Shown here one piece after another: positions 11,509 through 56,990 of a stretch of 64,000 bases of DNA (its first letter is position 1; each line of letters opens with the position of its first letter). The stretch lies in IMG/VR virus record IMGVR_UViG_3300031998_000001, positions 109,064-173,063 of that record, one strand, 5' to 3'. The stretch is from a virus (lineage: Duplodnaviria > Heunggongvirae > Uroviricota > Caudoviricetes). The position numbers and the translations under genes were made by a program. The notes under the pieces are model-generated. The model made no database searches and had not been told where the DNA came from. It was given only the letters and a program-made list of their open reading frames with translations.

Positions 11509-11970
11509 ATGGGAAGGAAGTACACGAACTTATTGCAGGAAACACTGGAGGCGGCTGGCTACAAGAGCGTCACCGAGTTCGCCCGAAAGATAATGTTCGC
11601 CCGCGTGGGTATTGACACGACAGTACCGCAGGAAAGGGCATACCTGAAGGAGAATGCGGTTGACGAGTACGGGCATACGAGGTTGTTCCTCACGCTTCCG
11701 CCATATCATATGGAGGAGGATGCCCACCTGTTCGCCAATATGCTTGATGTCCTCTACTACAACGGATTCGGGACGCAGGAAGTGTTCGGGGAGATTGCAC
11801 TTGCGGACGGGCAGTGGCTCTCCCGCAAGGAGTATGACGGAAGCGAGGAGTGGGAGTTGTGCTATTATCCGTCTTGGAACGATATGTGCAACGCCAACTG
11901 GAACGACGAGTTCAGGGACTGCAAGTTAAAAATAAATGAAAGCGATGAAAGCGAAGAAGAACATAGTTGA
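11509..11970 (+). CDS. hypothetical protein
   Basis: ATG MGRKYTNLL after an RBS-like GGGGGAATAG. In-frame with track ORF 11449. Confidence 0.5.
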   Translation: MGRKYTNLLQETLEAAGYKSVTEFARKIMFARVGIDTTVPQERAYLKENAVDEYGHTRLFLTLPPYHMEEDAHLFANMLDVLYYNGFGTQEVFGEIALADGQWLSRKEYDGSEEWELCYYPSWNDMCNANWNDEFRDCKLKINESDESEEEHS

Positions 11971-12472
11971 GAGGGGCAAGGAGTTGTCCTTCCTGTTGAG
12001 GCACGACAAGGAATATGCCTTTGACGAGCACGGCTGGCGCGAGGTCGCCGACCTGATTGAAAGGCACGGTTACACGATGGATGAACTCGAAGAGATAGTT
12101 GCGACCAACGACAAGAAGCGGTACGAGTTCTCGGATGACAGAAAGCGCATACGCGCCCGTCAGGGGCATAGCGTCGATGTCGATGTGGAATTGAAGGAGT
12201 GCGTACCGCCCGATACATTGTATCACGGGACTGCCGCAAGGTTCGTTGACCAGATACTCCGCGAGGGCATTACGAAGCAGTCGAGGCTTTATGTGCATTT
12301 GTCTGCGGATGTTTCGACAGCGTTCAAGGTCGGAAAGCGTCACGGGACACCATCGGTGCTTGCGGTGGATGCTATGGAAATGGTGGCGGACGGGCATAAG
12401 TTCTATTTGAGCAACAACGGTGTCTGGCTCACGGAGTATGTGCCGACCAGATACCTCAATGTCGTGATGTGA
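11936..12472 (+). CDS. RNA 2'-phosphotransferase Tpt1/KptA family
   Basis: Family motifs present: LSFLLRH (Arg-His), IRARQGHS, LYHGT, LYVHLS, VGKRHG, NNGVWLTEYVP. Confidence 0.75.
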   Translation: MKAMKAKKNIVERGKELSFLLRHDKEYAFDEHGWREVADLIERHGYTMDELEEIVATNDKKRYEFSDDRKRIRARQGHSVDVDVELKECVPPDTLYHGTAARFVDQILREGITKQSRLYVHLSADVSTAFKVGKRHGTPSVLAVDAMEMVADGHKFYLSNNGVWLTEYVPTRYLNVVM

Positions 12473-17531: not shown

Positions 17532-17543
17532 ACAGGTTATGTG

Positions 17544-18756: not shown

Positions 18757-19884
18757 ATGAATTACGATGTAAATATTGCAAGGGACTTGGTGAACGCTCC
18801 GAAGGGACTTCGCCTCTGGTCGCCCCTTTTCGGTCAGTGCCGACTTGAAGAGTTGGTAATACCCGCGCAGGGTGGGTATAATGTAAAGGTGTCAACGGTA
18901 AGGGACAACGGGGAGGTGATAGAGCACTTCTTCGAGAATGACGGAAGGTATTTTAACGGCTACACGAAAGGCGAGTGTATGTTGTTCCCAGACGAATACA
19001 AGCGTTGGGAGGAGTGGCAGTATTCGTGCTTCCGCAGGAGCATAGGGTATGTGATAGTTCCGATTGAGGGGAGCGCGGTAAACCACACTTTCCTTATCAC
19101 GAGCCAAGACTCGTGCGTAAGGTCGAAGAACCCGACATTCAACTTTGAACTCGAATACAAGTGCAAGGGATACCGCTACGCCACGCCCGCAGAGACGGAG
19201 GATTTCTTCCGAGAACTTGTGCAGGCTGGCTACGAGTGGGACACCAACGCTATGAAACTCGTGAAACTCCCGTCAAGGGAAAAGGCTGACTTCGAGAAAA
19301 TTATGGAGCGCAGGGGGACTTGCAACTCGATGTTGAGCCGTGATGTTGTTTCTGACCGTAGCAACGGTGGTGTTGACAATGACGAATCCAGCAAGGGCGT
19401 TGATGTATCAGACCGCAAATACGGCAACTCGGTCTATACGAAGGTGCTTCACCCGAAGTACAATGTGGGCGAGTACATAGTTGCCGAGCACTGTGGGGAA
19501 ATCCTCGTCGGACCCGAAATGATAACGGAAGTGCTTGCCGACAAGTATGTGCTTGGCGACGACATATACCCGATACTCCTCGTTGACAGCGACAGCGACT
19601 TCCGCCTTGCTACCGACAGGGAGATTGCCGAAGTTACCGACAACGCAGGCGAGGGCTTCGGGCTTCCGCCCTTCAAGCCCTTCCTCAAGGTTCTCGTAAG
19701 GGACACGGACGGCGACCCTTGGGACATAGCGATATTCAAGTATTACAATAATCGAGAGAAGAACCACTACAAGTACGCCTGTATGGACGACGACTGGGCG
19801 CAGTGCATACCCTACAACGAGGAGACGGAGAAACTGCTCCGCACCACCGACAAGCCAGACGAGAAATATGTAACTTGGAGATAA
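18757..19884 (+). CDS. tandem paralogue family C, member 3
   Basis: APKGLRLWSPLFGQCRL, ECMLFP...WEEWQ, and C-terminal CIPYNEET. Confidence 0.6.
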   Translation: MNYDVNIARDLVNAPKGLRLWSPLFGQCRLEELVIPAQGGYNVKVSTVRDNGEVIEHFFENDGRYFNGYTKGECMLFPDEYKRWEEWQYSCFRRSIGYVIVPIEGSAVNHTFLITSQDSCVRSKNPTFNFELEYKCKGYRYATPAETEDFFRELVQAGYEWDTNAMKLVKLPSREKADFEKIMERRGTCNSMLSRDVVSDRSNGGVDNDESSKGVDVSDRKYGNSVYTKVLHPKYNVGEYIVAEHCGEILVGPEMITEVLADKYVLGDDIYPILLVDSDSDFRLATDREIAEVTDNAGEGFGLPPFKPFLKVLVRDTDGDPWDIAIFKYYNNREKNHYKYACMDDDWAQCIPYNEETEKLLRTTDKPDEKYVTWR

Positions 19885-20701: not shown

Positions 20702-21502
20702 ATGAAGGACGCATTAGGCGACAGGATGAAAAGGTACGAGGCGAACGCGGACATAAGGCTTGTCCGCAGGACACCCGTGATAATAAGGATTGACGGCAAG
20801 GCTTTCCACACATTCACAAAGAAGTTCGACAAGCCGTTCGACCAAGTTTTTATGAAGGCTATGTTCGGGACGGCTCTGACATTGTGCGAGAACATACAGG
20901 GCTGTCGGCTCGGCTATACCCAGAGCGACGAGATTTCGCTCCTGCTGACCGACTACGAGAAACTGAACACAGACCCGTGGTTCGACAACCGCATACAGAA
21001 GATGTGCTCGATAGCCGCCTCGATAGCGACGCTCGCATTCAATCGGGCTTTCGAGCGTGCGGTAAGGGAGATTTCGGGGGAATATCCAGCCGAAAAGGTT
21101 GCGACATACAAGAGGAGCATTGCAATGGGCGGGATTTTCGATGCACGCGCATACAATGTCCCGAAGGACGATGTTACCAACTACTTCCTGTGGAGGCAGA
21201 ACGATGCCACCCGCAACTCGATACTTGGGGTAGGTCAGAGCGAGTTTACGCGCAAGAGGCTGATGAACAAGTCGTGCGACGAGATACAGGAGATGCTCTT
21301 TTTGGAGAAGGGCATAAACTGGAACGACTACGACACACCTCTCAAGAGGGGCGTGTGCATAAGGAAGGTCGGCAAGGAGGTCAACGGCACAGTGAGGAAC
21401 TTCTGGGAGATAGACTACGATATTCCGATATTCAGGGGCGAAGGTCGGGAGTATGTCGAGCAACTTGTGTTTCCAAACATTGACGAAAATGGAAGGGAAT
21501 AA
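20702..21502 (+). CDS. Thg1-like protein (tRNA-His guanylyltransferase family; 3'-5' nucleotide addition enzyme)
   Basis: MKRYEAN...RTPVIIRIDGKAFHTFTKKFDKPFDQ...GYTQSDEISLLL. This matches the Thg1/TLP core VVRIDGRAFHKF..KP.D...AYGQSDEISF. Confidence 0.7.
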   Translation: MKDALGDRMKRYEANADIRLVRRTPVIIRIDGKAFHTFTKKFDKPFDQVFMKAMFGTALTLCENIQGCRLGYTQSDEISLLLTDYEKLNTDPWFDNRIQKMCSIAASIATLAFNRAFERAVREISGEYPAEKVATYKRSIAMGGIFDARAYNVPKDDVTNYFLWRQNDATRNSILGVGQSEFTRKRLMNKSCDEIQEMLFLEKGINWNDYDTPLKRGVCIRKVGKEVNGTVRNFWEIDYDIPIFRGEGREYVEQLVFPNIDENGRE

Positions 21503-23589: not shown

Positions 23590-24036
23590 ATGGCAAGGGA
23601 ATTATCGGCGGGAATAATAATAAAGTGCAAGAGTGGCTACCTTATGTGCCACCCGACAGGAAGGAAGTACGAGCGCGGGAACTACGACATACCGAAAGGT
23701 CACGTGGAGGGCGATGACAATACATACCTCGATGCCTGCCTGCGCGAACTCGAAGAGGAGACTGGCATAGTGCTCTCGGAGAACGATGCAAGGCAAATCA
23801 GGACGATAGGTCGCACGGACTACAACCCGAAGAAAGACCTCTACCTGTTCTACCTGTGGCTTCCGTACGACATAGACACGAGGAAACTCACCTGCAAGTC
23901 TATGTTCACCGCGAAGGACGGGCGGGAAGTCCCAGAGATGAACGGGTATATGCTCTCTATGGACATTGGCTGGCTCTATCCGAATATGAAGAAGGTGTTT
24001 GACCGGCTGCTCGACATTGACGGCAACCTGATTTAG
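23590..24036 (+). CDS. Nudix hydrolase
   Basis: Nudix box GHVEGDDNTYLDACLRELEEETGI (Gx5Ex7REUxEExGU). Confidence 0.75.
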   Translation: MARELSAGIIIKCKSGYLMCHPTGRKYERGNYDIPKGHVEGDDNTYLDACLRELEEETGIVLSENDARQIRTIGRTDYNPKKDLYLFYLWLPYDIDTRKLTCKSMFTAKDGREVPEMNGYMLSMDIGWLYPNMKKVFDRLLDIDGNLI

Positions 24037-27520: not shown

Positions 27521-28315
27521 ATGATGACGGCTATGGAAATTAAGAAAACGGAAGATTTTTTAACGGGACGGACGGAAGCCAGCGCAGTCGCGGGGCTTGC
27601 TGGAAGCCCTGTGTATGAAAGTTCAATCAACAGGATAACGCACTGGATTGAAAATCACGAAATTGCCCTGATTACAGCATTCAGGGGTAAAAAGGAGAAC
27701 ATAGAGAATGCCGATGCCGTAAAGGATGACGGCAAGCCGATGGGCTACAGGTACACGCATAAGGAGAACAGGGAAAGAAACCGTGAACTTGGGGCGGCAC
27801 TGCTCGGTCTTGGGTACGGCATAACGAAGGTGGGCGGCGTTTATGTCGAGAACTTCGGTATGGACAACGCACGCCTTTCCGACGAGGAGACACTGCTTGT
27901 CGTCAACAAGGACGGCAGGGACGGGTTCTACGACAATATATTCAGGCTGTCCGAATACTACGACCAAGACTGCTTCTGCTACAAGCCGAAGGACGATAAT
28001 GTCGGATATAACATCGGGACGAACTCGTCGGACTATCCCGGCTATGGAAACCGTGTACGCAACGGCAAGTTTACGGTCGGTGTCAAGAATATGTTTATGA
28101 CAAGGCTTGGAAACAAGGGGTTTGCTTTCACGGATGCCGAAGACCTTGGCAGTTTCTCGACGACACACAAAACGAGAAAGGCGGAGCGTATTTCAAAGCG
28201 GACGGAGAGCGCGATTAACGAAGTGTTCGATTATTTTTCCGACTACGGTCTCGGAGGAAAGCAGTCTATCTGGAACATAGCGAACCCGATTATGAAAATC
28301 TTGGAGAAGAAGTAG
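27521..28315 (+). CDS. hypothetical protein
   Basis: Packed ORF. Confidence 0.55.
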   Translation: MMTAMEIKKTEDFLTGRTEASAVAGLAGSPVYESSINRITHWIENHEIALITAFRGKKENIENADAVKDDGKPMGYRYTHKENRERNRELGAALLGLGYGITKVGGVYVENFGMDNARLSDEETLLVVNKDGRDGFYDNIFRLSEYYDQDCFCYKPKDDNVGYNIGTNSSDYPGYGNRVRNGKFTVGVKNMFMTRLGNKGFAFTDAEDLGSFSTTHKTRKAERISKRTESAINEVFDYFSDYGLGGKQSIWNIANPIMKILEKK

Positions 28316-31598: not shown

Positions 31599-32435
31599 AT
31601 GGAAAAAAGAACAAAAGTAATCGTAGGCGTAATAATCGCCGCATTGTTTATGTTAGTTATGTGCTTTGTAACCCGCTGCTCGAAGGTCGATACGGCGGAG
31701 GTCGGCATCAAGTTCAACAAGTTGAGCCTCACCGAGCAGGGGACGCTCGACGCGACAATAGTTTCGGGCTACACTTGGTACTGCCCGATAACGACAGACC
31801 TGCACACATACCCGACATTCGTGCAGAGAAAGAACTACCCGCCGTTTACCGTAAATACGAAGGATGCTGCCGAGTTCACTATGGACCCGAACATCGCATA
31901 CCAGATTAACCGAGACCGAGCGATAGACATATTCCAGAAATACCGCAAGGCACTTGAGGAGATAGAGGACGGGTATATGCTCACGGTCATAAAGGATGCG
32001 TACAGGATAACGGCAAACAGATATACATCCGACAGCATAATGGGAAACCGAGCAAGATTCGAGAGCGAGGTGCGGACAATGCTTGACACGGCACTCTCCA
32101 ACGAAGGCTTTATGGTGACGGAATTTACCTCCCAGATTACACCGCCAGCGTCCCTGCGTGCAATGATAGACTCGAAGAATGCAGCGATACAGTCGGCACT
32201 CAAAGCCGAAAATCAGGTGAAGGAGGCGGAAGCCAACGCCAAGATAGCCGTTGCAAAGGCGCAGGGGGAAGCGGAAGCCCTGAAGATAAAGGCTGACGGT
32301 GAGGCTTACTACAACCGAACCGTTGCTGCCTCGTTGAACCAGATACTCGTCCAGCAGTATGCGATAGAGAAGTGGAACGGCGTGATGCCACAGGTCACTG
32401 GCACTGGCTCTATGCCAATGATTGACCTCAAATAG
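31599..32435 (+). CDS. SPFH/band-7 (HflK/C- or prohibitin-like) membrane protein
   Basis: N-terminal TM helix VIVGVIIAALFMLVMCFV. SPFH-like core. C-terminal AENQVKEAEANAKIAVAKAQGEAEALKIKADGEA helix typical of HflK/C. Confidence 0.6.
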   Translation: MEKRTKVIVGVIIAALFMLVMCFVTRCSKVDTAEVGIKFNKLSLTEQGTLDATIVSGYTWYCPITTDLHTYPTFVQRKNYPPFTVNTKDAAEFTMDPNIAYQINRDRAIDIFQKYRKALEEIEDGYMLTVIKDAYRITANRYTSDSIMGNRARFESEVRTMLDTALSNEGFMVTEFTSQITPPASLRAMIDSKNAAIQSALKAENQVKEAEANAKIAVAKAQGEAEALKIKADGEAYYNRTVAASLNQILVQQYAIEKWNGVMPQVTGTGSMPMIDLK

Positions 32436-34750: not shown

Positions 34751-35107
34751 ATGTTAGGCAGATTATTGAGATGGCTGCACTCCAATATGGAGTTCAGGAT
34801 ACGAGAGGAAAGACGGGGCAATTATGTGCTGTACTACCCGCAGGTCAGGGGCGGACTGCTCGGCAGGCTTGGCGTATGGAGATACTTCCACCCGATTGGA
34901 TTTAACAACAATAGATATACGATATGGGCGAAGAGCAGCATCGTAAAGGACTTTCCGTACAGGTCGGAGTTCAAGGACTTCGCGGAGGAGTCAATCGACA
35001 AGTTCGTCAAGTCATTGATACCGCTGGGGATGCCCAGATATGAGAAGAAGAGAGTTTCCTACAAGTACCGCACGGTCGGTTCGGACGGAACGGTAAGGTA
35101 CATTTAA
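34751..35107 (+). CDS. GLLG-motif family protein, member 3
   Basis: YYPQVRGGLLGRLGVWRYFH. Confidence 0.55.
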   Translation: MLGRLLRWLHSNMEFRIREERRGNYVLYYPQVRGGLLGRLGVWRYFHPIGFNNNRYTIWAKSSIVKDFPYRSEFKDFAEESIDKFVKSLIPLGMPRYEKKRVSYKYRTVGSDGTVRYI

Positions 35108-35120: not shown

Positions 35121-35999
35121 ATGGTGCATATCAAGAGAACGAACGAGATGGCTGGTTTCCAGCCAAGACACATAAAGGTTGATGACTTTTTTGACATCAG
35201 TTCAATATCCCGCAAGGACATCACATCAATATCGACGGACTTGCGCGTGTTTTTTCAAGTCAAATTATTTGACTCGAATATTGATTACTCCGACGGCGAG
35301 CATATCAACGAAAGCGTCGAAAGGACACTAACCATAAGCGAAATCAAAAGAGAGTTGAGGAAACTCAAGTTCAAGAGGTGGCAGATTTCATCAGAAATGG
35401 GTCAAAACGGAAACAGGATAGCCATCCTGTATGCGGACATAGCGATGAACACCGACATAATCAGCCAGAAGATGGAATCGTTCGGGTGGGAATGTGCGGA
35501 TATTTCCGATGCGATGGAAATATACGGCGTTATGTGCCGAGTTATGACATTCGACCCGTCGTATCCGCAGGAAATATCGGACTATGTGTTCGGATGCAGA
35601 TATATTTATCATTGGACACCGAAGGCAAGGGTTGCATCTATTCTTTCGGACGGCATAGAACCACGTAGCGAAAATGAATACTTGAAGTTCAAGCCCAAGG
35701 TGCATCTGATGAAAGAGAATGTCACGAAACGAGTTGCTTCAAATCTCGGATGGCAGTTATACAATAGGAAATCGGAATCGAATGAGGGTGAATACTGCCT
35801 GTTGAGAATAGCCGTGAACAAGATACCCAGCAATGTCAAGTTTTATGGAGATACGAGATGCGGTTGCGGAATTACCACGAAATGTACGATACCGCCCGAA
35901 GCGATAACGATATTCGGGAAGATAGAATACAGGGACAAGCAGAAATATCACAACGAGAAGATTATAGTGCTCGTGGATGACGATACAATGAACCAATAG
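35121..35999 (+). CDS. protein with divergent Tpt1/ADP-ribosyltransferase-fold C-terminal domain
   Basis: The C-terminal 100 aa align motif by motif with the window's Tpt1 gene (11936). IYHWTPKARVASILSDGI matches LYHGTAARFVDQILREGI. KVHLM matches YVHLS. KFYGD...ITT..IPPEAI matches KFYLSNNGVWLTEYVPTRYL. Confidence 0.4.
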   Translation: MVHIKRTNEMAGFQPRHIKVDDFFDISSISRKDITSISTDLRVFFQVKLFDSNIDYSDGEHINESVERTLTISEIKRELRKLKFKRWQISSEMGQNGNRIAILYADIAMNTDIISQKMESFGWECADISDAMEIYGVMCRVMTFDPSYPQEISDYVFGCRYIYHWTPKARVASILSDGIEPRSENEYLKFKPKVHLMKENVTKRVASNLGWQLYNRKSESNEGEYCLLRIAVNKIPSNVKFYGDTRCGCGITTKCTIPPEAITIFGKIEYRDKQKYHNEKIIVLVDDDTMNQ

Positions 36000-36017: not shown

Positions 36018-36467
36018 ATGGACGACGAAAGAAAGTATATGGACGACGAGAAGTCGATGGCTAACACGCTCCCGTTTGATGCGGAGCAAGCCAAGCAGGG
36101 AAAGCCCGTGTGTACAAAGGACGGACGACCAGTAAGAATATTGTGCTACGACAGGGACAATGACCTTCCGATAGTTGCACTCATAAGGGAGTGGGACGGG
36201 GAACAGAGCGTGGCGACATACACAATGGAAGGCGTTGCGGGGACTGGTGATGCTATGGACAACCTCGCGATAATCGGGGTGGTGTGCAAGGGCTACACGG
36301 CAGTCCTGAAGGACGCACCGTACAACCCAGAAAAGTTGCCCTGCTATAATGACAGGTGCGTGAACGGCTTGATATTCGATAAGCCCGAAGATGTCATCGA
36401 AACTATGAAGAAGTTGGAACTCGCCGATTTGCTTGTGGGAGTTGCCGAAACCAAATGGATTGAATAA
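36018..36467 (+). CDS. hypothetical protein
   Basis: ORF. Confidence 0.5.
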   Translation: MDDERKYMDDEKSMANTLPFDAEQAKQGKPVCTKDGRPVRILCYDRDNDLPIVALIREWDGEQSVATYTMEGVAGTGDAMDNLAIIGVVCKGYTAVLKDAPYNPEKLPCYNDRCVNGLIFDKPEDVIETMKKLELADLLVGVAETKWIE

Positions 36468-36468
36468 A

Positions 36469-37320
36469 ATGCTGAAAGATATGGAAGGAAAGGAGTATAA
36501 AAACAGAGGCGTGGGTGTCGTAACGCTTGTTATGACATTCATAGGAGGCAAGGCTCACATACTTGCCAACCAGAGGGGCGACAAGACTTCCGAGCAGGGC
36601 TTGCTGTGGAACTTGCCGAGCGGATACCTCGACTGGAATGAAACTGCGGAGATGGCTGCGGCGAGGGAAATCAGGGAGGAGTGCGGTGTCGAAATTGCAC
36701 CGAGCGAACTCACGGAACTGGAACACTCGACAGACCCGGCGGAGAACAGGCAGAACATAATGTTCCGATACATTGCGGTCGTGGAAGCCGAACGCCTCCG
36801 CGACTTCAAGGCTATGGACGCGGACGAAGTTAGGGACATAAGGCTCATACCGCTTTCCGACATAGAGCAGTACAGGTGGGCTTGGGGGCAGAACCGCAAG
36901 ATATACCGCCTGATAAACAAGTACAACGAGTATGCGGAGAAGAAGGTTATGACATTCGGCAGGTTCAAGGGCTGTGTAATCGACGAAGCGTTTACAAGCC
37001 AGAATTGGGCATATCTCGAATGGGCTTATAAGAATGTCGGGGAAGTCGTAAAGTGGTTCAAGAACGGCTTGAAAAAGCCCCGTACGGCATATACGCCAAA
37101 GCCCGCTCCAAGCATCAGCCGATATTATGGCTCTGGACACGGCTACGGTGATGACGACGATGATGAGAACAGGCGTTGCGGGAACTGCCCGCACGGTGGC
37201 TACGACTCCTGTTCGGACTACTGCGATGCCTGTCGGCACGACCCAGACACGGGCTGGGGCGGGGAGACCGACCATAGCCTGTGCAGTGATAGCGAGGAGA
37301 CGGGCTGGGGTGGGGATTAG
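36469..37320 (+). CDS. Nudix hydrolase fused to DUF3820-like segment and Cys-rich acidic tail
   Basis: Nudix box GYLDWNETAEMAAAREIREECGV. Middle segment is FGRFKGCVIDE...YLEWAYKN. The tail is CGNCPHGGYDSCSDYCDACRHD plus two GWGG motifs. Confidence 0.65.
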   Translation: MLKDMEGKEYKNRGVGVVTLVMTFIGGKAHILANQRGDKTSEQGLLWNLPSGYLDWNETAEMAAAREIREECGVEIAPSELTELEHSTDPAENRQNIMFRYIAVVEAERLRDFKAMDADEVRDIRLIPLSDIEQYRWAWGQNRKIYRLINKYNEYAEKKVMTFGRFKGCVIDEAFTSQNWAYLEWAYKNVGEVVKWFKNGLKKPRTAYTPKPAPSISRYYGSGHGYGDDDDDENRRCGNCPHGGYDSCSDYCDACRHDPDTGWGGETDHSLCSDSEETGWGGD

Positions 37321-42284: not shown

Positions 42285-43078
42285 GGGAAAGGATAGTTGA
42301 CTACGAACTTGCGTCAATGCTGAAGGACGCTGGCTTTGATGCCCCTGTGGAAAGGGTGATATACCCAGACGGGACTGTTATGTTCATTGATGAGAACAGC
42401 GTGTCGAGGGACAAGCACATTGAACTCCCGAACTCGAAACTCAATATATGGGACTCCTGCGTCTCCGCGCCCACGCTCGATATGGCGTGCGAGTGGATGC
42501 TCTCGGAGAAGGGGCTGTTCGTCGCGGTGTTCTGCTCGACTGACGGGCGGTGGTTCTCGTACAGGCTCTACTCGGACAAGGGCGAGAGGTTCGTCCTGCT
42601 CGGCGACTACGGGGACGAGTACAAGGCGACAGACCCAGTTGCTGCGAGGGCAATGGGCTTGCGCAATGCGCTTATGCTCGAACTCCCGACGAGGGATAAC
42701 GGTGATGGATGTTTAACTGAAAATGGCAATACGATGAAAGACAACGAAAAGAACTTTGGCAAGTACGCTCTTGCCTTCAATACGGAGGGCAAGGAGGGTT
42801 CACCCGAAACCGTTGTGATGAAGAGGGAATTGCAGATGGATTGCAAGACCGTCGGCAACTGCACGGACGAGCGTCCGAGCGACGAGTGGATACGGAGGTT
42901 CATAACGGCTTCCTGTGGCTGGCTGAAGAAGAACTCCGTAGGCTTCGTGATGGAGGATGAGAAAGGCAACGAGGTGATGTTCAACGGCTGCCACCTTGTT
43001 GACGGGGATGCGCTCGCCAATGCGTATCGGGAATACTTCGAGAAGCACTGGCTCGGCAGACCGAAGTCGGAAAAATAA
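42278..43078 (+). CDS. hypothetical protein
   Basis: ORF. Confidence 0.5.
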   Translation: MVRERIVDYELASMLKDAGFDAPVERVIYPDGTVMFIDENSVSRDKHIELPNSKLNIWDSCVSAPTLDMACEWMLSEKGLFVAVFCSTDGRWFSYRLYSDKGERFVLLGDYGDEYKATDPVAARAMGLRNALMLELPTRDNGDGCLTENGNTMKDNEKNFGKYALAFNTEGKEGSPETVVMKRELQMDCKTVGNCTDERPSDEWIRRFITASCGWLKKNSVGFVMEDEKGNEVMFNGCHLVDGDALANAYREYFEKHWLGRPKSEK

Positions 43079-43107
43079 TATAAATAGGTTATATATAATG
43101 ATTTGCT

Positions 43108-43425
43108 ATGGACAATACCAACGGAAACACGGACAAGAGGATAGTGTGCAGGATTGATGTACGCAGGTACGGCTGGAATATTGATGCAGGGATGGAGTGC
43201 GAACTGTGCCTCCGCTCGCTTGGCTTCGACTATGTGTCGCTCGACAAGCGCAAAGGCTCCCACGGGGCTGAACTCTACATACCAGAAGAGGACAGGGAAC
43301 GCTTCGAGAAGGAGGTGGTCAACAGGACGCTCGTGGGCGAGTGGCGCACTTTCCACATCAGCCAGATGTCTGGCTTCGGTATGGCACGCTGGGGGTTGTA
43401 CTATGTGAGTTACGGACGCAAGTAA
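43108..43425 (+). CDS. hypothetical protein
   Basis: ORF. Confidence 0.45.
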   Translation: MDNTNGNTDKRIVCRIDVRRYGWNIDAGMECELCLRSLGFDYVSLDKRKGSHGAELYIPEEDRERFEKEVVNRTLVGEWRTFHISQMSGFGMARWGLYYVSYGRK

Positions 43426-43436
43426 ACCGAAACAAA

Positions 43437-43763
43437 ATGGCATACTATATTGCGAAGGAGGCTGGGCTGTACATTCTCTTCACGGGGAAATACAGGCGCA
43501 TCGATACCGTCCACCTGTTCGACAGGTACTACAACTATCGGGCGGAGATTGACGGCGACCGCTGGTACGGTGCTTTCGGGGAGCAGGAAATCAAGGGGAA
43601 GTGGCACTACTTCAGCGAAGCACCCGTGAGGGTCAAAAAGAAGGAGTGGGATGCGCTCTATGACAGCATAGTGAAGATAGGGAGGATGAAGGACTTGTAT
43701 ATGACAACAGCAAAAATATTGTATTCAAACCATAAAAGGAAAGGAAGTAAGAATGGCAAGTAG
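43437..43763 (+). CDS. hypothetical protein
   Basis: ATG MAYYIAKEAG, in-frame with track ORF 43341. Confidence 0.45.
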   Translation: MAYYIAKEAGLYILFTGKYRRIDTVHLFDRYYNYRAEIDGDRWYGAFGEQEIKGKWHYFSEAPVRVKKKEWDALYDSIVKIGRMKDLYMTTAKILYSNHKRKGSKNGK

Positions 43764-44999: not shown

Positions 45000-45575
45000 A
45001 TGTCATTATTGAGCAGGATAATCGGGTTTTTTAACAAAAGCAAGGACAAGATGGAAGATTACAGGGAAGAATATCAGGCGGAGCATCCAGACATAGACTT
45101 GGAGGCGAAGCGTTTTGAGCAGGAGCACGCGGAGGAGATAGCGAATATGCCGATAAAGGTCGAGGTCGTCTCCCACACCGAGCCGAAGATTTACGAGAGC
45201 AACACTGGTCGGGATGTAACGCCAGACAGGAGTTCGGGAAGGAAGCCGAAGTCCTCGCAGGCGGTAGCAACACAGGACAACGGCTCGTTTGACGAGGGCT
45301 ACCAGCAGGGCTACGCAGCGGGGTTTGCGGACGGTCAGGAGAGCGTGCCGAAGCCGAAGGCTGTGTCGGGCGAAGTTCAGGAAAGGGACGAGGCGGTATG
45401 CACGAAGCCCGTGCCGAAGGACATAAAGGTCTTCCGCATAGAGTTCAAGGGCGGAAGAAAGTTGTCGTGCATAGCGGAGTCCATAGGGCAGGCAATCGCA
45501 CGCATAGGCAGGGACAGCGACATCAGCGAGGTGGTGTCGATAGGCGAGGACACGGAGATAATAAACGCACTGTAG
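45000..45575 (+). CDS. hypothetical protein
   Basis: ORF. Confidence 0.5.
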   Translation: MSLLSRIIGFFNKSKDKMEDYREEYQAEHPDIDLEAKRFEQEHAEEIANMPIKVEVVSHTEPKIYESNTGRDVTPDRSSGRKPKSSQAVATQDNGSFDEGYQQGYAAGFADGQESVPKPKAVSGEVQERDEAVCTKPVPKDIKVFRIEFKGGRKLSCIAESIGQAIARIGRDSDISEVVSIGEDTEIINAL

Positions 45576-45578
45576 GGT

Positions 45579-46421
45579 ATGAACACGGAGAATGAACTCG
45601 TATATGCAAGCAAGCACGACCTCGAAGGGAAGGTCGGGGAGGTCGTAGTCGAGAGGTACGGCGGGAAGAAGGCGTACATCGGCAACGACAAGGTGATATT
45701 CGTGGCGTATCGGAACAACATATACAAGGGGGTGTTCGGGAACGACCCGCTCTCGCTTGTAACGCCTATGACCACATTCACCCTCGACAGCCAAGAAGAG
45801 GTCGATATGTTCAACAAGTTGCAGGAGTATGTGAAGGCTAACGGCAAGCCGTACCACGAGACAATCATACTCGAAAGGGAGGACGAACGCTACAAGGACA
45901 ACAGGGGCGGGGTGCTCCTTGACGAGCAACTCGGATGGTCTTTCGGGGCTGACTTGGACGGGGAGGTATGCGAACTCTACTCCAACCTTCGGGCGATTGA
46001 GGAACTCGAAGCGAAGGGTGCGGTTGACACCCGCTTCGCGAGCAATTCGGAAGCAATAAACTTCTCGATAGGAAGTTCGGAAGCCGACCTGCGTGCAGAG
46101 TACAAGAGGCAGAGGCTCGAACGGGGCTTCGATGATACGGAGATTTGGAATCTCGACTACACATTCGCGAAATTCGTGCTTCCGAGGCTCAAACGCTTCA
46201 AGGAGGTAAATCAGGGATACCCCGCGACAATAACATACGATGTGTGGGACGAATACCTCGACAAGATGATATACGCATTCGAGAACATAGACTATGACGA
46301 CAAGTCGTACGATGGTGTCGAATGGTTCGATATGCCGCAGGAGGCGCGTGATGCGGTCGTGGAGAAGGTCAACGAAGGTCTTGACCTGTTCCGCAGGCAC
46401 TACTTCTCGCTGTGGTGGTGA
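45579..46421 (+). CDS. hypothetical protein
   Basis: ORF. Confidence 0.5.
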   Translation: MNTENELVYASKHDLEGKVGEVVVERYGGKKAYIGNDKVIFVAYRNNIYKGVFGNDPLSLVTPMTTFTLDSQEEVDMFNKLQEYVKANGKPYHETIILEREDERYKDNRGGVLLDEQLGWSFGADLDGEVCELYSNLRAIEELEAKGAVDTRFASNSEAINFSIGSSEADLRAEYKRQRLERGFDDTEIWNLDYTFAKFVLPRLKRFKEVNQGYPATITYDVWDEYLDKMIYAFENIDYDDKSYDGVEWFDMPQEARDAVVEKVNEGLDLFRRHYFSLWW

Positions 46422-46533: not shown

Positions 46534-47733
46534 ATGTATATCGCACCGTCGGATGTATTCATATTCGAGAACTACGGGGACGACCTGTTGAGGCTCACCC
46601 CCGAAACAAAGGGCGCACTCCTCCGCTGTGACAGGCGTTTCCACAAGTTGATGGAGGAGTATGAGAGGGAACACGTGCATTTCGCAAATGTGAAGAATGT
46701 CCGTTCCGAGATAGACAAGTACCTTGAAGCGAGGAAGAAGGGCAAGAGCCACAGGTTGAGGCTCGAATACGAGGACAGCAAGTTCTCGGACGACAAGTGG
46801 TGCGACGGGATGATTGGGAAACTCGGAGAACTCAAGAACGATTTGATAACCGTTGACTGCTACCTCACGAAGTTCTACATATACAGGATTGACCGAACGA
46901 TAGACAGCATAATGTTCCTCAACGAATACTCGCACGATGAAAACGCCTTCCCGAAGAACATAAAGCGTCCTTCGGAGAAACTCTACCGCAAGGCACTCGA
47001 ATACCTCGTGAAGTACAAGTACCAGAGCGTACAGGAACTCGCGGACAAGGACGAGGACTACAGGAGGGTGTTCACCCCAGAGGAGAGCAGGAAGCGTTTA
47101 CAGAAAATCATCGACAAACTCGGCTACGGCTGGAAGGTCATCATAGACGACAATATGGTTCCGAGAATGAGCGTGAGACCGTATCGGGAGTTCAGGATAA
47201 ATGCGAAAAACAACTTCAGCGAGGTTGACCTCCGCTCCCTCGAAGTCCACGAGATAGAAGTCCACACGGCTCGCAAGGCGAATGCGTTGAAAACAGGGCT
47301 GTACCTGTTCCTATACGGGCTTGAGGGGGACAACATATATGACGAGGGGCTTGCAATCTACAACTCCCTCAACAAGGCGGAGAAGCCGAAGCCGAACATA
47401 ATCTTCTTCATAGCGATAAAGATTGCCATACTCTACAACCTCTACATTATGGACACGGACGCTCTGTACGAGATGCTACTCGGCTTGACCGAAGCACCAG
47501 AGGAGGTCGTGGTGTACGCAATCATAAGGGCGATGAGGGTGTTCTCGTTCACGACGACCGAGACGGCATACACGGACACCGACTACCTTGACGGGTACGA
47601 GAGGGTTAAGGAGATGGACTCGGCACTCAAGAAAGACCTCCTGCTCTACACGATAGGACCCGACCAGTTGTATGAACTCCCGATAATAAAGAAGTTTATG
47701 CAGGTAAACAAGTTCAAGCCTCTGGAGGTGTAG
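46534..47733 (+). CDS. DUF1704/QEGLA-motif (MATCAP-like) putative metallo-carboxypeptidase
   Basis: HEIEVH (HExxxH spacing), then DEGLA about 30 residues later. Size about 400 aa is typical of the family. Confidence 0.4.
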   Translation: MYIAPSDVFIFENYGDDLLRLTPETKGALLRCDRRFHKLMEEYEREHVHFANVKNVRSEIDKYLEARKKGKSHRLRLEYEDSKFSDDKWCDGMIGKLGELKNDLITVDCYLTKFYIYRIDRTIDSIMFLNEYSHDENAFPKNIKRPSEKLYRKALEYLVKYKYQSVQELADKDEDYRRVFTPEESRKRLQKIIDKLGYGWKVIIDDNMVPRMSVRPYREFRINAKNNFSEVDLRSLEVHEIEVHTARKANALKTGLYLFLYGLEGDNIYDEGLAIYNSLNKAEKPKPNIIFFIAIKIAILYNLYIMDTDALYEMLLGLTEAPEEVVVYAIIRAMRVFSFTTTETAYTDTDYLDGYERVKEMDSALKKDLLLYTIGPDQLYELPIIKKFMQVNKFKPLEV

Positions 47734-47818: not shown

Positions 47819-47894
47819 TTTTCTGCTACTCGCAGAATTTACACCTGCATTATTATAGTCCCTACCTTTGCGATGTAACCAAAGGCAACGGACT

Positions 47895-48827
47895 ATGAAC
47901 CAGTTTGAATTTTTTGAGAAGTTTCCTACGGAGGACGACGCAATCGACTTCATCGTGGAAACGAAGTACAGGGACGGATATGTCTGCCCCAAGTGCGGAT
48001 GCGTGCATCACAAAATCTATCATCAGAAGTACAACCGCAGAAATCTTTATTGCAACAACTGCAAGAGCGAGTTCTCGGCATTGTCTGGAACTATCTTTGA
48101 ACACACCCATCTTGACCTGCGTATGTGGCTCTTTGCAATAAACTTGGTGCTTATTGCACGCAAGGGCATAAGCGGATTGCAGTTGCAAAGGGAACTCGGT
48201 ATGGTGTCCTACAAGGGTGCTTTCCGTATGCTCAAACTGATAAGGCAAGCGATGGGGACGGAAGCCCATAAAGATACATTCGAGGCAATCGTTGAAATAG
48301 ATGAAACCTATGTCGGTGGGAAGCCACGCAAGGAAAACAGACACAAGGGCAAGGTGTCCAAAAAGTCAAAGCGAGGACGAGGAACAAGCAAGACACCAGT
48401 CGTGGGCGTGGTCGAACGCAGTAGCGGGCGCATATACGCCAAAGTTGCACTGCCGAACAAGGAAGGCAAGAAGTTAAGCGGAAAGCAACTGCTGTCCATA
48501 CTGGACGAGGTGTGCAAGTCGAACACTACCGTTATGACCGACCAGTTGAGCAGTTACGGGATTCTGGACGGCAAGACCGACAGGAAGTACATACACATAA
48601 AGATTGACCATAGTATGACTTATTCGCTTGGGGACGGCAAGCATACGAACACCATCGAATCCTGCTGGGCGATATTGAAGCGCGGTGTATATGGTATCTA
48701 CCACCACATATCAACAAGGCACTTGCAGGAGTATGTGGACGAGTTCTGCTACCGCCTTAACCACCGCCAGCCCGATGATGCTTGGAAGCATCTGGTCGGG
48801 CTGGGGATAGGGTGTATGGCGGTGTGA
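47895..48827 (+). CDS. IS1595-family (ISXO2-like) DDE transposase
   Basis: N-terminal transposase zinc-ribbon (FPTEDDAIDFIVETKYRDGYVCPKCGC...CNNC). DDE_Tnp_IS1595-like core (IDETYVGG...MTDQLSSY...HTNTIESCW). Confidence 0.8.
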   Translation: MNQFEFFEKFPTEDDAIDFIVETKYRDGYVCPKCGCVHHKIYHQKYNRRNLYCNNCKSEFSALSGTIFEHTHLDLRMWLFAINLVLIARKGISGLQLQRELGMVSYKGAFRMLKLIRQAMGTEAHKDTFEAIVEIDETYVGGKPRKENRHKGKVSKKSKRGRGTSKTPVVGVVERSSGRIYAKVALPNKEGKKLSGKQLLSILDEVCKSNTTVMTDQLSSYGILDGKTDRKYIHIKIDHSMTYSLGDGKHTNTIESCWAILKRGVYGIYHHISTRHLQEYVDEFCYRLNHRQPDDAWKHLVGLGIGCMAV

Positions 48828-48830
48828 CTA

Positions 48831-49697
48831 TTATTTGCTGAAATCAACAAAGTTTCTTATTTCTTCCGCCCATTGCTTATATTGGGAATTGTCGAAGTGC
48901 TCGCCGTTCTTCATAGTGTAGAACACATTTCGATTCGTGTTTTTCAAAAACTTTCCACTTTCAACGATTTCGATGAACTGTTCAGCGTTTATCTTTTCTA
49001 AAATTTTGTCAATGAAAAACCATTTGACAAAATCGGTAGAACACGGTAACAATCCAGAAATATCAGTAAAGGCATAATCATAACATTCTTTAAAAAGAGT
49101 CGTGTCTGAATGATTTGGCAATGTTTCATATACGGCAACAAGTCCTTCTACTGTCATAGAATACTTGTTATAGTCATTATAAGAATCAAGTTGGTTTCTC
49201 AATATATCTTTTAACGAATATTTTTTATTAGGGTCTAAATCAAAATCCTCATATCCGTCATCATATTGACCATCTTCAATCGCTCCTTCTGCTTCATTGA
49301 TTGCCCTGAAGCCTCTGCGCGAAGCACGGCTTTCGATTGTGCGTCCCGACAATAACTGTCTGACATAACTCATAACGGGTGTCAAGTCAACTATCCAACT
49401 TCCCCAACTGCCTTCTTCCTCTTGTTTTATATCCATCATATAGTAAACACCGTCTTTTTCGTAAATTTCAGTATCACCATCGGAAAAATCGTAAATGTGC
49501 GTATAACCCTCGTTTTTCAAATAATTTAACACATCATTCCAAGTGTCACCCATAAGTTCCCAAAATGAATCGTCTGTATTTTTATGCAAACCATTAACAC
49601 CATCGGCATAATAAGTTTGAAGTTTATTTTCAGCGGGAGATGTATATACCTCGTTAACTTTCATTTCGTTTAATCTTCTAATATGTACCATATTCAA
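48831..49697 (-). CDS. cargo gene, hypothetical (288 aa), AT-rich
   Basis: Minus-strand ORF inside the IR-bounded unit. Confidence 0.5.
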   Translation of the reverse strand: MNMVHIRRLNEMKVNEVYTSPAENKLQTYYADGVNGLHKNTDDSFWELMGDTWNDVLNYLKNEGYTHIYDFSDGDTEIYEKDGVYYMMDIKQEEEGSWGSWIVDLTPVMSYVRQLLSGRTIESRASRRGFRAINEAEGAIEDGQYDDGYEDFDLDPNKKYSLKDILRNQLDSYNDYNKYSMTVEGLVAVYETLPNHSDTTLFKECYDYAFTDISGLLPCSTDFVKWFFIDKILEKINAEQFIEIVESGKFLKNTNRNVFYTMKNGEHFDNSQYKQWAEEIRNFVDFSK

Positions 49698-49812
49698 ATC
49701 AATTATATTATTCTACTATTATTTATATTTTGTGCTTCCGCTGGGATTTGTTACCTTTGCCGATGAAAAGATGGAAAGTTTCCAATATATTATATAGTAA
49801 ATAATTCCGACT

Positions 49813-50289
49813 ATGAAGTACAAGAATATGGAAGTTGAATACATAACGAAGGACAACTTGCCGAAAGTCGCGGAACTGCTTGGCGACGAATCGCTGCTTG
49901 CCTACGATGACATCTGCTTTGAGCATAGTATGTACAGTATGAATAAAAAAGGTGAAATAACATCGGTAGTCATATTACGCCGAAATTCGTTGTTTGACTA
50001 TTATGGCGGGGAGATTCCAGACGACATAAATTTCGATGAACACAAGGATGTTATCAGGCAGAGTTTGAATGATTTGTACCCAGATGGCAATGTCCATTAT
50101 GAAATGGTCTGTTGCTATATGAAAAGCAGAAATTATTTCATTCATATCCACGAACTCTATAATTTGATTGGCATTCTGCCAACGGGAATAGTCTGGTGTA
50201 AATATCAAATGGACAAAGAATTTCCGTTACATTGCGTATTTTATAACTTTAACAATGACATTTGGATTCATTTGAGTATCGAGGATTGA
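49813..50289 (+). CDS. cargo gene, hypothetical (158 aa)
   Basis: ORF inside the unit, preceded by a promoter-cassette-like variant. Confidence 0.45.
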   Translation: MKYKNMEVEYITKDNLPKVAELLGDESLLAYDDICFEHSMYSMNKKGEITSVVILRRNSLFDYYGGEIPDDINFDEHKDVIRQSLNDLYPDGNVHYEMVCCYMKSRNYFIHIHELYNLIGILPTGIVWCKYQMDKEFPLHCVFYNFNNDIWIHLSIED

Positions 50290-50333
50290 TACTATAATAT
50301 CCATATAAATATTACATAAGATATTTGTAATGG

Positions 50334-51023
50334 ATGAAACGACTTAATTTTTCAAAAGTAGAACCATACGCCGTTGCTGATTGGATAGAAAGCAATAAAA
50401 ACGGTAATCGACTTGACTATATCAAAGGGAAGGAAGATACAAAAGAGGTAATCAGAAGACTGGGAAGATTGCCGTATGGTATGTTTAATGATATTGAGAA
50501 ACTGAAGGGGTGGTTTCTAAAGAACTTGGAAATGAGAGCGGCACAAACCAATTCATTGTATCGTGCATTTCTTTCTATAAAGAATGACAAAATCATTAAC
50601 TTGAGGGTTGCCGACCATTTTTCGACAATGAACTCCGCTACAAAGGCATTTGGATTATATGGCAAATCGGATTACGAATACCACATTTCCCCAGAACAGT
50701 CGGGAAATGCAAATGGCGATAGCATTGATGACGATTGCATTATTAACTATAAAGGGAAACGCATTGAAATAATCGTTGCGACAATTTGGTTGGATGAATT
50801 TATTGTAGATGGAAACGAAAACTGCAAAAAGATAATAGACGACTTAATATTTCTGCTTCAAAAAGGTCGAAAGCGCAATAGTACACAAGAGAATTTTACA
50901 TTTGTGGTTTCAAATGGGGATGTTTTTGAAAATGCAAATGTATATAATATAGCCAAATTGAACACGAATCACATTTTAACCATTGACGAATTTCTTGCGG
51001 AAAGTAGTAATGATGGATTGTGA
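50334..51023 (+). CDS. cargo gene, hypothetical (229 aa)
   Basis: ORF inside the unit. Confidence 0.45.
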   Translation: MKRLNFSKVEPYAVADWIESNKNGNRLDYIKGKEDTKEVIRRLGRLPYGMFNDIEKLKGWFLKNLEMRAAQTNSLYRAFLSIKNDKIINLRVADHFSTMNSATKAFGLYGKSDYEYHISPEQSGNANGDSIDDDCIINYKGKRIEIIVATIWLDEFIVDGNENCKKIIDDLIFLLQKGRKRNSTQENFTFVVSNGDVFENANVYNIAKLNTNHILTIDEFLAESSNDGL

Positions 51024-51081
51024 TAATCCCAGCCTATGACATTCCGTCCTACCCCGATTTGCGGTGGGCGAGTACACCATA

Positions 51082-51148
51082 TCGTTATGACGGTATTCCG
51101 TTATGTCGGGATGTCGGCTACAAGACTAAAAGGGATAATTCCGATTTT
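51082..51148 (-). repeat. right terminal inverted repeat
   Basis: TCGTTATGACGGTATTCCGTTATGTCGGGATGTCGGCTACAAGACTAAAAGGGATAATTCCGATTTT is the reverse complement of the left IR. Confidence 0.65.
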
Positions 51149-51154
51149 AAATAT

Positions 51155-51183
51155 GAAAAAGCCCGATATGAAATCGGGCTTGC
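51155..51183 (-). terminator. terminator for minus-strand gene 51235-51768
   Basis: On the minus strand: CAAGCCCGATTTCATATCGGGCTTTTTCATATTT. Confidence 0.55.
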
Positions 51184-51234
51184 AAGTGTCGCCCTGACGA
51201 CACCGTAACTCCTTCTACATCTTGGTAGGCGAGC

Positions 51235-51768
51235 CTATTTCTTCACATTCTCCGTGTAGTTCCTGAAGAACTCCTGACGATAGACCTCCCCGTAGTAGCC
51301 CTCTTTCGCCATAACAGCGAGTGCCTTGCTGCCAGTCCACTCTCCGAGCACGGCATAGTTCCTGTCGGAGAGGTCGTCATTGAGGGCGAGTTCGAGGGTT
51401 ATATCGACATACACCCCGTCAACCTTGTTGAAGGCGTGCTCTATCGGAAGCCCGAACACCGTAACGAAGCCCTCGCAGTAGAGTATCTCCCTGCCGAGTT
51501 CACCGAGCCTTGACGAGAAGTGGAATGCGTTTTCATAGCAAGCCTTCTGCTTCGGGTGAACCGCACGCCTTATGCGCCCTATCTCGTCCTCCGTGAATAT
51601 TTCCCGCAGGGGGTGTACGACCACTGGCTTGATGTCCTTGAGCATCTGGGAGTAGTAGTCCTTGCCAGCCCCGCTCGATATGCTGGCTATCTCGGAGACA
51701 TACCTTACAATCGGGTTATCTCCGCCCGCGCTTTCAAGAAGCCTGTATTCGTTGTATTTCCTGACCAT
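51235..51768 (-). CDS. hypothetical protein
   Basis: First gene of the minus-strand block. Confidence 0.5.
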   Translation of the reverse strand: MVRKYNEYRLLESAGGDNPIVRYVSEIASISSGAGKDYYSQMLKDIKPVVVHPLREIFTEDEIGRIRRAVHPKQKACYENAFHFSSRLGELGREILYCEGFVTVFGLPIEHAFNKVDGVYVDITLELALNDDLSDRNYAVLGEWTGSKALAVMAKEGYYGEVYRQEFFRNYTENVKK

Positions 51769-51788
51769 ACCCGTCCTGTCCTATTATC

Positions 51789-52532
51789 CTACATTTCGTC
51801 CATATAGCAGTTGAGGGACGGATTCCATACCCTTGTTCCGCTCACCTTTCCCTTCGGTGCATTGTTCACCGCCACAGCCTTCTTCGTTTCGGGCTTGACC
51901 TCCTCCGCAGGTGTTTCTGGCTCTGGTTCGGGTGTCGCTTCGGGTGTCGGCTCTGGCAATGGCACTTCGGCTGGTGCTTCGGCTTCCACCTCCGCTTCGG
52001 GAACTGGCTCTGGCTCTGGTTCGGGCAGAGGCTCTGCAATCGGCTCTTCCGCCACCTTGTCCTTCTTCGGCTGTAACACATTGACCATAGTCCTTACGAA
52101 GCCGAGCGCGACAAGAGGAAGTATCGCGCCAGATATGCAGGCGAGCACCCGCTTCTGCGCAATCGGTTCGAGTTCCTCAAGCCCGAAGAGTTCTATCCAG
52201 CCCTGAAAGTTGTCGAGGGCGGAGTAGGCTGCGTATGTGTTGCCCATCATCTGGAAGAGGGTAAGCAACACGAACATAAGCCAGACGAGTGCCTGCTTCT
52301 CCTTCGGAAGTATGAGCGTGCTCAATAGGCAGCACATCGCACCGAGTTCAAAGCCTATGGCAAGCACCCAAGACATAGTTCCTGCGTGCGCAAGGCGGAA
52401 GAACTCCACCGAGCAGATAAGGCTTATGCACGCCACGAGGACATAGAGAAGCCCGAAAGCCGAGCAACTCACATACTTTATTATGTTATGCCTGTCAATC
52501 TTCATAGTTGTATTTGTTAAAGTTAGACACAT
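51789..52532 (-). CDS. polytopic membrane protein with Pro/Glu-rich tail
   Basis: Four or more hydrophobic helices, then PEPEPEPVPEAEVEAEAPAEVPLPEPTPEATPEPEPETPAEE. Confidence 0.55.
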   Translation of the reverse strand: MCLTLTNTTMKIDRHNIIKYVSCSAFGLLYVLVACISLICSVEFFRLAHAGTMSWVLAIGFELGAMCCLLSTLILPKEKQALVWLMFVLLTLFQMMGNTYAAYSALDNFQGWIELFGLEELEPIAQKRVLACISGAILPLVALGFVRTMVNVLQPKKDKVAEEPIAEPLPEPEPEPVPEAEVEAEAPAEVPLPEPTPEATPEPEPETPAEEVKPETKKAVAVNNAPKGKVSGTRVWNPSLNCYMDEM

Positions 52533-52609
52533 TATTTATATGAGTGCGGAAAGGCGGGCACGGGGACAATCCCCAGCCCGCCTTGCGAGTATCGGAAAAG
52601 AGTTGCACA

Positions 52610-53596: not shown

Positions 53597-53630
53597 AATT
53601 AAAAAATCTTATATTATATCAAATTAAATT

Positions 53631-54728: not shown

Positions 54729-54738
54729 AAATATTATA

Positions 54739-55418: not shown

Positions 55419-55430
55419 AATACTAATGTT

Positions 55431-55769: not shown

Positions 55770-55807
55770 ATTCCTATTGTGTTATATATAGATTATTTAT
55801 ATCTCGG

Positions 55808-56984: not shown

Positions 56985-56990
56985 TTTATA

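Follow-up and report, generated by a model that had tools for sequence, protein, structure and literature searches.

What does the gene at 35121-35999 (+) encode, and is it a second copy of the RNA 2'-phosphotransferase Tpt1 that is found elsewhere in the same phage DNA? The gene belongs to a stretch of 64,000 nucleotides, referred to here as the window, from the IMG/VR virus record IMGVR_UViG_3300031998_000001 (positions 109,064 to 173,063; Caudoviricetes). An earlier note, made from the letters alone, had recognised a divergent domain of the Tpt1/ADP-ribosyltransferase (ART) fold in the C-terminal part of the product and had proposed either an ADP-ribosyltransferase dependent on nicotinamide adenine dinucleotide (NAD) or a regulatory paralogue of Tpt1. 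The open reading frame (ORF) runs from ATG to TAG and codes for 292 aa, exactly as in that note. It sits within a long co-directional array of small genes, with gaps of 13 and 18 nt to its neighbours, and scanning the surrounding region for tRNA, Rfam, promoter and terminator features returned no tRNA, no Rfam match and nothing convincing. The ORF list, homologs and profile searches describe the whole gene as coding for a two-domain protein of an unnamed phage ART-fold family. We favour, with some reserve, the reading that it encodes a stand-alone phage NAD-dependent ADP-ribosyltransferase of this family. We hold active transfer to be moderately likely, and are far surer of the fold and of a functional NAD pocket.

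The C-terminal domain has an ART fold and is related to Tpt1

By BLASTP the target protein matched the Tpt1 of the window over 22 residues (E 0.048), which was unconvincing alone. Ten close full-length homologs of the target were found, and an exhaustive profile search that took in 1.84 billion representatives, with clusters defined at 50% identity, recovered 831 clusters at E<=1e-3, 372 at E<=1e-10 and 59 at E<=1e-30. Most of the 150 matches listed from this search were 250-340 aa long and aligned across both domains. Repeating the homolog search with a deep alignment added just one further protein. An alignment of 129 family sequences (A2) was the basis of all column counts and of the family profile. 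When this profile was compared by hhalign to a 28-sequence Tpt1 profile, 88 columns covering the whole NAD lobe were aligned (target residues 159-268 to Tpt1 92-178) with a probability of 81.8% and E 1.1e-5, placing the similarity beyond compositional chance. Against PDB sequences the family profile matched Tpt1 (E 2.2e-4) and E. coli DarT1 (E 2.4e-3), and among the window ORFs the best non-self match of the family hidden Markov model (HMM) was the Tpt1 gene, weakly (E 0.031). Structure prediction and profile comparison together gave the split beta-sheet of the ART fold, the check that the note had suggested. On these alignments the C-terminal domain is distantly but really related to Tpt1.

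The target had no match among Pfam and PHROG models, including PF01885 (Tpt1) even at E<=10 and PF00644 (the PARP catalytic domain), and scans of the target and the family members against Pfam, PHROGs, PADLOC and NCBIfam assigned no family at threshold. Matches below threshold were seen to PF01885 in 4 of the 129 members (best E 0.025) and to PF00644 in 10 (best E 1.7e-3). The gathering threshold was reached by none of the 129 for PF01885, and by neither the target nor the 129 for PF00644. The family is large, absent from these four databases and carried by phages whose biology is almost entirely obscure.

The phosphotransferase apparatus of Tpt1 is absent

The comparator in the window is a bona fide Tpt1/KptA gene at 11936..12472 (+), recognised by PF01885 (E 3e-43) and PHROG 5470 (E 5e-62). 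Its product is about 67% identical to Prevotella-type KptA, indicating that it was probably acquired recently from the host lineage. The target and Tpt1 are about 20% identical over the aligned lobe. The note had matched the two proteins motif by motif; four of its five motifs are indeed collinear (IYHWT/LYHGT, SILSDGI/QILREGI, VHL/VHL and FY/FY), but the fifth, IPP, occurs in the target only and Tpt1 reads VPT. Two further observations were borne out. The Arg-His and RxQGHS motifs are missing, with LRH and RARQGHS of the window Tpt1 unmatched in the target, and the N-terminal region is unlike Tpt1, a family-specific alpha/beta domain standing where Tpt1 has its RNA lobe. The catalytic apparatus of Tpt1 comprises a winged-helix lobe with an Arg-His...Arg...Arg tetrad (PMC8120803). 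This lobe, the tetrad and the LRH/RxQGHS motifs are present in the window Tpt1 and have been lost from the target and the 129-member family, setting it apart from Tpt1, KptA and TRPT1 (PF01885; H-H-h clade). The NAD lobes differ as well: the phage family has Trp, Ile, Leu or Val for the Gly of the HGT motif, mostly Tyr instead of His on beta2, and Tyr225 and Asp244 where Tpt1 has an invariant Pro (Pro139) and Ser159.

A second Tpt1, either a divergent RNA 2'-phosphotransferase or a regulatory paralogue serving phage RNA repair, could draw on the homology to the Tpt1 NAD lobe, on the RNA ligase, Tpt1 and Thg1 encoded in the window and on Arg/Lys193, which may match the fourth Arg of the tetrad (R117 of Tpt1). 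We consider this very improbable given the missing lobe and motifs, an N-domain in which nothing basic is conserved, the failure of every member to reach the PF01885 threshold, and a gene that lies 23 kb from the repair genes in a context that varies. Because the window Tpt1 is a recent host-type acquisition and the identity is only about 20%, the two are ancient homologs at the level of the superfamily and not paralogues within this genome, and the regulatory paralogue proposed in the note was set aside.

The predicted NAD pocket is a variant of the diphtheria toxin type

The ART domain (residues ~155-283; 35583..35969, +) is a minimal ART fold, with a predicted pocket that would hold NAD+. 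The ART triad lies on beta1, beta2 and beta5 and distinguishes the clades H-H-h, H-Y-[EDQ] and R-S-E (PMC9825190; PMC9503650). On beta1, H164-W165-T166 (35610..35618, +) forms an 'H-x-T' motif that corresponds to the HGT of Tpt1 and diphtheria toxin (DT) and aligns with Tpt1 H97-G98-T99. H164 was present in 129/129 members and Thr or Ser in 127/129 at position 166, with W/I/L/V at position 165. By analogy with the HGT motif, which has a described role in NAD binding by TRPT1 (PMC10415124), H164 and T166 are predicted to bind the adenosine ribose and the nicotinamide amide. The function of HGT may be kept despite W/I/L/V at the Gly position, because the Gly contact in TRPT1 is made via the backbone (PMC10415124).

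On beta2, K193-V194-H195 (35697..35705, +) supplies the equivalents of Tpt1 R117 and H121, in an ambiguous register, which hhalign and the VHL/VHL match place 2 residues apart. Position 193 is Arg or Lys in 96% of members and is the predicted contact of the diphosphate. Position 195, the second of the triad, is Tyr in 73 members, His in 42 and Phe in 8 (of 129). Y225 at the start of beta3 (35793..35795, +) is Tyr in 123/129 and aromatic in 98%, and appears to occupy the place of the second Tyr in DT-like H-Y-Y-E enzymes. His195, or the Tyr of most relatives, would contact the nicotinamide and distal ribose together with Tyr225. With H164, T/S166, R/K193, Y/H/F195 and Y225, the family has the beta1 His and the further pocket residues that characterise the ART superfamily.

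The candidate catalytic acid is D244 (35850..35852, +), which is Asp in 127/129 members and lies at the end of beta4, at the base of the beta4-beta5 hairpin. As it closes beta4 at the hairpin base, it should adjoin the start of beta5, the site of the canonical Glu, and in the predicted secondary structure this near-invariant Asp could act as does the catalytic Glu of DT/PARP-type enzymes, like Asp115 of the phage-borne ART AcrIF11. At the start of beta5 itself, hhalign aligns I251 (35871..35873, +) with Tpt1 Val163, the 'h' of H-H-h, and the family column reads V/I/Y/L. The triad of mouse TRPT1 is His125-His149-Val193 (PMC10415124), with H97-H121-V163 as equivalents in the window Tpt1. Through hhalign the window protein likewise reads H164-H195-I251 (H-H-h), with Tyr at position 195 in 73/129 members and the two-residue ambiguity on beta2 noted above. 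Judged from the conserved columns, the family consensus H-(Y/H)-Y-D would be a variant of the DT-type H-Y-Y-E pocket, with H-H-Y-D in the window protein. An acidic residue at position 248 was considered as a catalytic Glu co-varying with Tyr/His195 and was rejected, as only 63% of members have it, no covariation was seen and the window protein has Gly.

The N-terminal domain and its leader

The N-terminal alpha/beta domain (N-domain; residues ~68-150; 35322..35570, +) is specific to the family and always fused to the ART domain across it. In the predicted structure of the protein (predicted template modelling score, pTM, 0.79) it comprises helix 72-80, strands 89-93 and 98-105, helix 110-120 and strands 123-128, 132-134 and 137-146, laid out as a five-stranded sheet with two helices on one side. 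Most likely this domain would select or present the substrate, replacing the RNA-binding lobe of Tpt1. The 129-sequence alignment contains no conserved Arg, His or Lys in the N-domain, and the sole Arg-His of the target (R16-H17) falls in the non-conserved leader. The lack of conserved basic residues counts against a nucleic-acid ART that modifies host or phage DNA or RNA, either a single-stranded DNA (ssDNA) base as DarT does or by 5'-phosphate capping as in Tpt1/TRPT1. We regard such an enzyme as rather unlikely, since the R-H-R-R tetrad of Tpt1 is also absent, the similarity to DarT1 is limited to the first motif, and the window ORFs scanned include neither a DarG-like macrodomain nor a NADAR partner. 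The protein is acidic, with an isoelectric point (pI) of 5.9 (N-domain 5.2). This was withdrawn as an argument against nucleic-acid binding because it is weak: the N-lobe of the genuine window Tpt1 also has a pI of 6.1.

The protein begins with the leader MVHIKRTNEM (35121..35150, +), which is conserved in close homologs and lies in a stretch predicted to be disordered (residues 1-13, predicted local distance difference test, pLDDT, <50). Eight of its ten residues are identical in MVHIRRLNEM (49662-49691), the start of the unrelated ORF 48831-49691(-). This ORF was also evaluated as a cryptic paralogue of the target and rejected (hhalign E 0.35, hmmsearch E 3.5). Distant members carry the N-terminal motif (K/R)-h-I-(K/R)-L-T-E-S-x-L-(K/R)-x-I-I-(K/R)-E, and a profile of the longer leader motif matched the N-terminus of an unrelated phosphoribosyltransferase (PRTase)-like protein in locus L007 (4277-5179; E 4e-4). 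Phage T4 packages the ART Alt and internal proteins by means of an N-terminal capsid-targeting sequence of about 10 residues, which is cleaved after L/I-x-E, and related phages carry a T4 gp21-type prohead protease (Peptidase_S77; L012 17809-19800). By analogy, the leader is possibly a modular targeting or processing signal like that of T4. On a bolder reading, the family would be a hitherto undescribed class of counter-defence enzymes of Bacteroidales huge phages, injected or acting early, in which an H-(Y/H)-Y-D ART would be delivered with the DNA under a T4-like signal and its N-domain would dock one specific host target, for example a defence complex (compare AcrIF11 on Csy) or a translation or transcription factor. 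We put this forward tentatively and think it doubtful.

The sharing of the leader by unrelated proteins would also suit an inert ART-fold protein, such as a sponge or sensor of NAD or ADP-ribose (ADPr) or a structural or cargo protein, or one whose N-domain acts as a lid in cis until delivery. The canonical beta5 Glu is absent, the layout of the N-domain has also been described for the TriTu immunity lid (PMC9825190), and the pTM of the model suggests fixed packing between the domains. The invariance of His164 and Asp244 at 20-30% identity is expected of a catalytic site and not of a scaffold, and activity is known for ARTs without the beta5 Glu, among them TreTu (R-H-W), the PARP10 type (H-Y-I) and Tpt1 (PMC10415124; PMC9825190). 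We consider an inert or self-inhibited protein very improbable.

Distribution and gene neighbourhood

The family members are metagenomic, without NCBI or UniProt accessions, and several are on contigs of 160-363 kb. A locus search with a shallow alignment returned three loci with close relatives, on two IMG/VR contigs (344 and 363 kb) and one contig of a Bacteroidales metagenome-assembled genome. Searching GenBank phages with the target by megablast and tblastn gave no match. The only deposited phage genomes to match were those of the Prevotella Lak megaphages, found by the distant member P0058. With TAG read through, the Lak-B5 locus encodes a complete two-domain member (320 aa; E 3e-22), and TAG readthrough is known for Lak phages. 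As far as is visible, the family is confined to huge uncultivated phages of Bacteroidales from the gut and rumen, the Lak megaphages among them.

The neighbours of the ART-family gene differed in every locus examined. A homolog 84% identical to the target lies beside SbcCD-like genes and others lie among unrelated small ORFs. A conserved neighbourhood was sought and rejected, the only shared genes being a MATCAP-like gene, whose distance varies, and a transposase of the IS1595 type (L005 and L006). The MATCAP-like protein of the window (tyrosine carboxypeptidase family; 46534-47733, +) is 36% identical to a MATCAP+DUF285 protein of the 363-kb relative (L001 5757-7676), whose gene lies about 2.3 kb upstream of the ART homolog. 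The IS1595-family transposase of the window (47868-48827, +; DDE_Tnp_IS1595 E 5e-33) is adjoined by ORF 48831-49691(-) and marks the edge of an island of 41-44% GC (low GC at ~48000-52000) where gene orientation switches. In L005 and L006 homologs of this transposase directly precede the ART-family gene, which suggests that the ART gene is carried within a mobile or variable region. The 118-aa ORF that comes just before the ART gene in the window (34751-35107, +) has a paralogue 19 kb away (15897-16220, +; E 6e-7), the two having GLLGxLGVWR in common.

A NUDIX gene two ORFs downstream was the only ADPr-related neighbour, and its linkage is not conserved in related loci. The C-terminal segment of the NUDIX protein (36433-37320, +) is ExoX-like and its tail is rich in Cys, Asp and Gly; the TTG start of the gene overlaps the preceding ORF. 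In L001 an NAD-salvage block (165-3802) with nicotinamidase/isochorismatase, NAMPT/NAPRTase, NAD synthase and PRPP-synthetase-like genes is located 6-10 kb upstream of the ART-family gene; no NAD-salvage genes were found in the 64-kb window. These linkages bear on a small-molecule or NAD-processing enzyme, that is, an NADase, an NAD phosphorylase or an ART making or destroying a soluble ADPr-derived compound such as an immune signal. Such an enzyme would fit the H-H-h clade, known members of which act on RNA-end phosphates, on small molecules and on soluble derivatives of ADPr. We consider it unlikely, though worth keeping in view: neither the NUDIX nor the NAD-salvage linkage is conserved across loci, the mostly Tyr195 with Tyr225 and an invariant Asp is DT/PARP-like and typical of macromolecule modifiers, and a conserved partner domain of 80 residues is more typical of recognition of a macromolecular target.

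No Macro, NADAR or ARH genes were found among the scanned window ORFs of at least 100 aa, and the loci examined have no conserved adjacent antitoxin or immunity gene. Because the neighbours vary and no Macro, NADAR or ARH gene was found, we read the gene as a stand-alone accessory and not as one half of a toxin-antitoxin or toxin-immunity pair.

Weighing the ADP-ribosyltransferase reading

The note's proposal of an NAD-dependent ADP-ribosyltransferase is reasonably supported by these results. In the mechanism that we propose, the ART domain would take NAD+ into the pocket described above, Asp244 would serve catalysis and ADP-ribose would be moved to a host (or phage) macromolecule presented by the N-domain during huge-phage infection of Prevotella or other Bacteroidales, for host takeover or counter-defence. 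The analysis establishes the ORF, the fold, the homology with the NAD lobe of Tpt1, the missing phosphotransferase apparatus, the pattern of conservation, the size of the family and its confinement to huge phages, and the absence of a conserved partner gene. NAD binding, catalysis by Asp244, the class of substrate and the biological role are inferred, and this is a first point that weighs against the transferase reading. Several others do so as well. The position of D244 relative to the NAD site comes from the secondary structure of the model. The canonical catalytic position on beta5 is hydrophobic (I251) by alignment to Tpt1, and position 248, acidic in ~63% of the family, has no acid in the window protein (Gly) or in its two closest relatives, so that a non-transferase chemistry (a phosphate nucleophile or NAD hydrolysis) or a role in binding only is possible. 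The gene context, differing even for the 84%-identical homolog, gives no functional clue, and the window ORFs scanned lack the Macro, NADAR and ARH genes already mentioned. As regards novelty, unpublished or uncurated profiles from the Aravind group may already include the family.

With its fold, the candidate residues (H164, K/R193, H/Y195, Y225 and D244) and a separable putative recognition domain, the family lends itself to direct tests, and it could bring to light a new ADP-ribosylation target or a new anti-defence mechanism in Prevotella and relatives.

Other features of the window

The window is phage DNA, encoding a T4-type large terminase, RNA ligase, Thg1, an amidase and two NUDIX proteins. 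The terminase (5127-7508, +; 793 aa) is interrupted by an intein-like insert (Intein_splicing, under the Pfam cut-off at E 2e-8), and its closest relatives are in uncultured huge phages of 460-640 kb (LR756500, LR745206, LR756502 and LR756504). An RNA-repair set is formed by the RNA ligase (1270-2679, +; PHA02142 OB domain and RNA_ligase) and a Thg1-like tRNA-His guanylyltransferase (20702-21502, +), and is completed by Tpt1/KptA. The other NUDIX hydrolase gene is at 23590-24036 (+).

Paralogous genes occur as a tandem triplet (16767-17531, 17541-18533 and 18757-19884, +; BLASTP E 1e-10 to 1e-16) and a tandem pair (52610-53596 and 53631-54728, -; E 6e-10). A weak match to S-adenosylmethionine lyase at 27521-28315 (+; E 1.8e-5, below cut-off) is possibly an anti-restriction gene, and an SPFH/Band-7 membrane protein is encoded at 31599-32435 (+; E 1e-18). 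GC and AT skew are strongly positive over the plus-strand genes (1-47000 and 58000-64000) and flat or reversed in the minus-strand block (48000-57000). ORFs were called by a longest-ORF rule, and the several long antisense ORFs that this simple caller gave in skewed regions (45006-46400 and 42607-43443 among them) are probably spurious; the true genes of ~41.8-46.5 kb lie outside the resolved set.

Comparison with known ADP-ribosyltransferases

ARTs have been reported in more than 40% of jumbo phages, in 16 families (Iyer et al.), and because phage ARTs are common, a divergent ART in a huge phage is not surprising in kind. We found no tie to any named viral ART family in a comparison that left the 'N4-like', 'p0068-like' and 'ORF28' lists (Iyer et al. 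2022) outside, and the family HMM had no match in the first 50 kb of the phage N4 genome. ARTs in phages being known, what appears new from the alignments is the family itself, its domain partner and its H-(Y/H)-Y-D pocket.

The ARTs T4 Alt, ModA and ModB of the R-S-E clade, of which Alt is packaged in the head, likely resemble the family in role, as phage enzymes that reprogram the host early in infection. The R-S-E pattern (Arg on beta1, Ser-Thr-Ser on beta2 and E-x-E at beta5) was absent from the 129 members, which have an invariant His on beta1 and no conserved ExE motif. The DarT toxins (DUF4433) act on ssDNA, and only their first motif aligns significantly, the DarT1 match in PDB covering 28 residues. 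The phage family has no conserved beta5 Glu and DarT has no extra N-terminal domain; neither the target nor the family matched the Pfam model of DarT, and no DarG macrodomain partner was seen among the window ORFs scanned. DT/PARP-type enzymes (ARTD, H-Y-[EDQ], including PARP10-like H-Y-h and Tox-ART-HYD) share with the family consensus a His-Tyr-Tyr plus an acid, and SILSDGI of the target resembles GILSQGL of PARP. In the phage family, however, the invariant acid, Asp244, is at the end of beta4 and not at the start of beta5, and the regulatory and helical domains of PARP are missing.

The closest precedent for the H-(Y/H)-Y-D pattern is AcrIF11, an anti-CRISPR ART of phages and plasmids. No similarity to AcrIF11 (6KYF/8DWQ) was detectable by sequence, and it was not among the top-ranking structural matches. 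AcrIF11 has been described as H-H-D or H-F-H-D, with the catalytic Asp115 on a conserved loop (PMC8120803; PMC12421852). The likeness lies in small size, carriage by a phage, a DT-like ART domain whose first two key residues are His, a loop Asp that stands in for the beta5 Glu, and a stand-alone gene without an antitoxin, and AcrIF11 offers a precedent for a highly specific counter-defence ART. Compared with Tpt1, the phage family itself shows how a Tpt1-like NAD lobe can be combined with a different partner domain.
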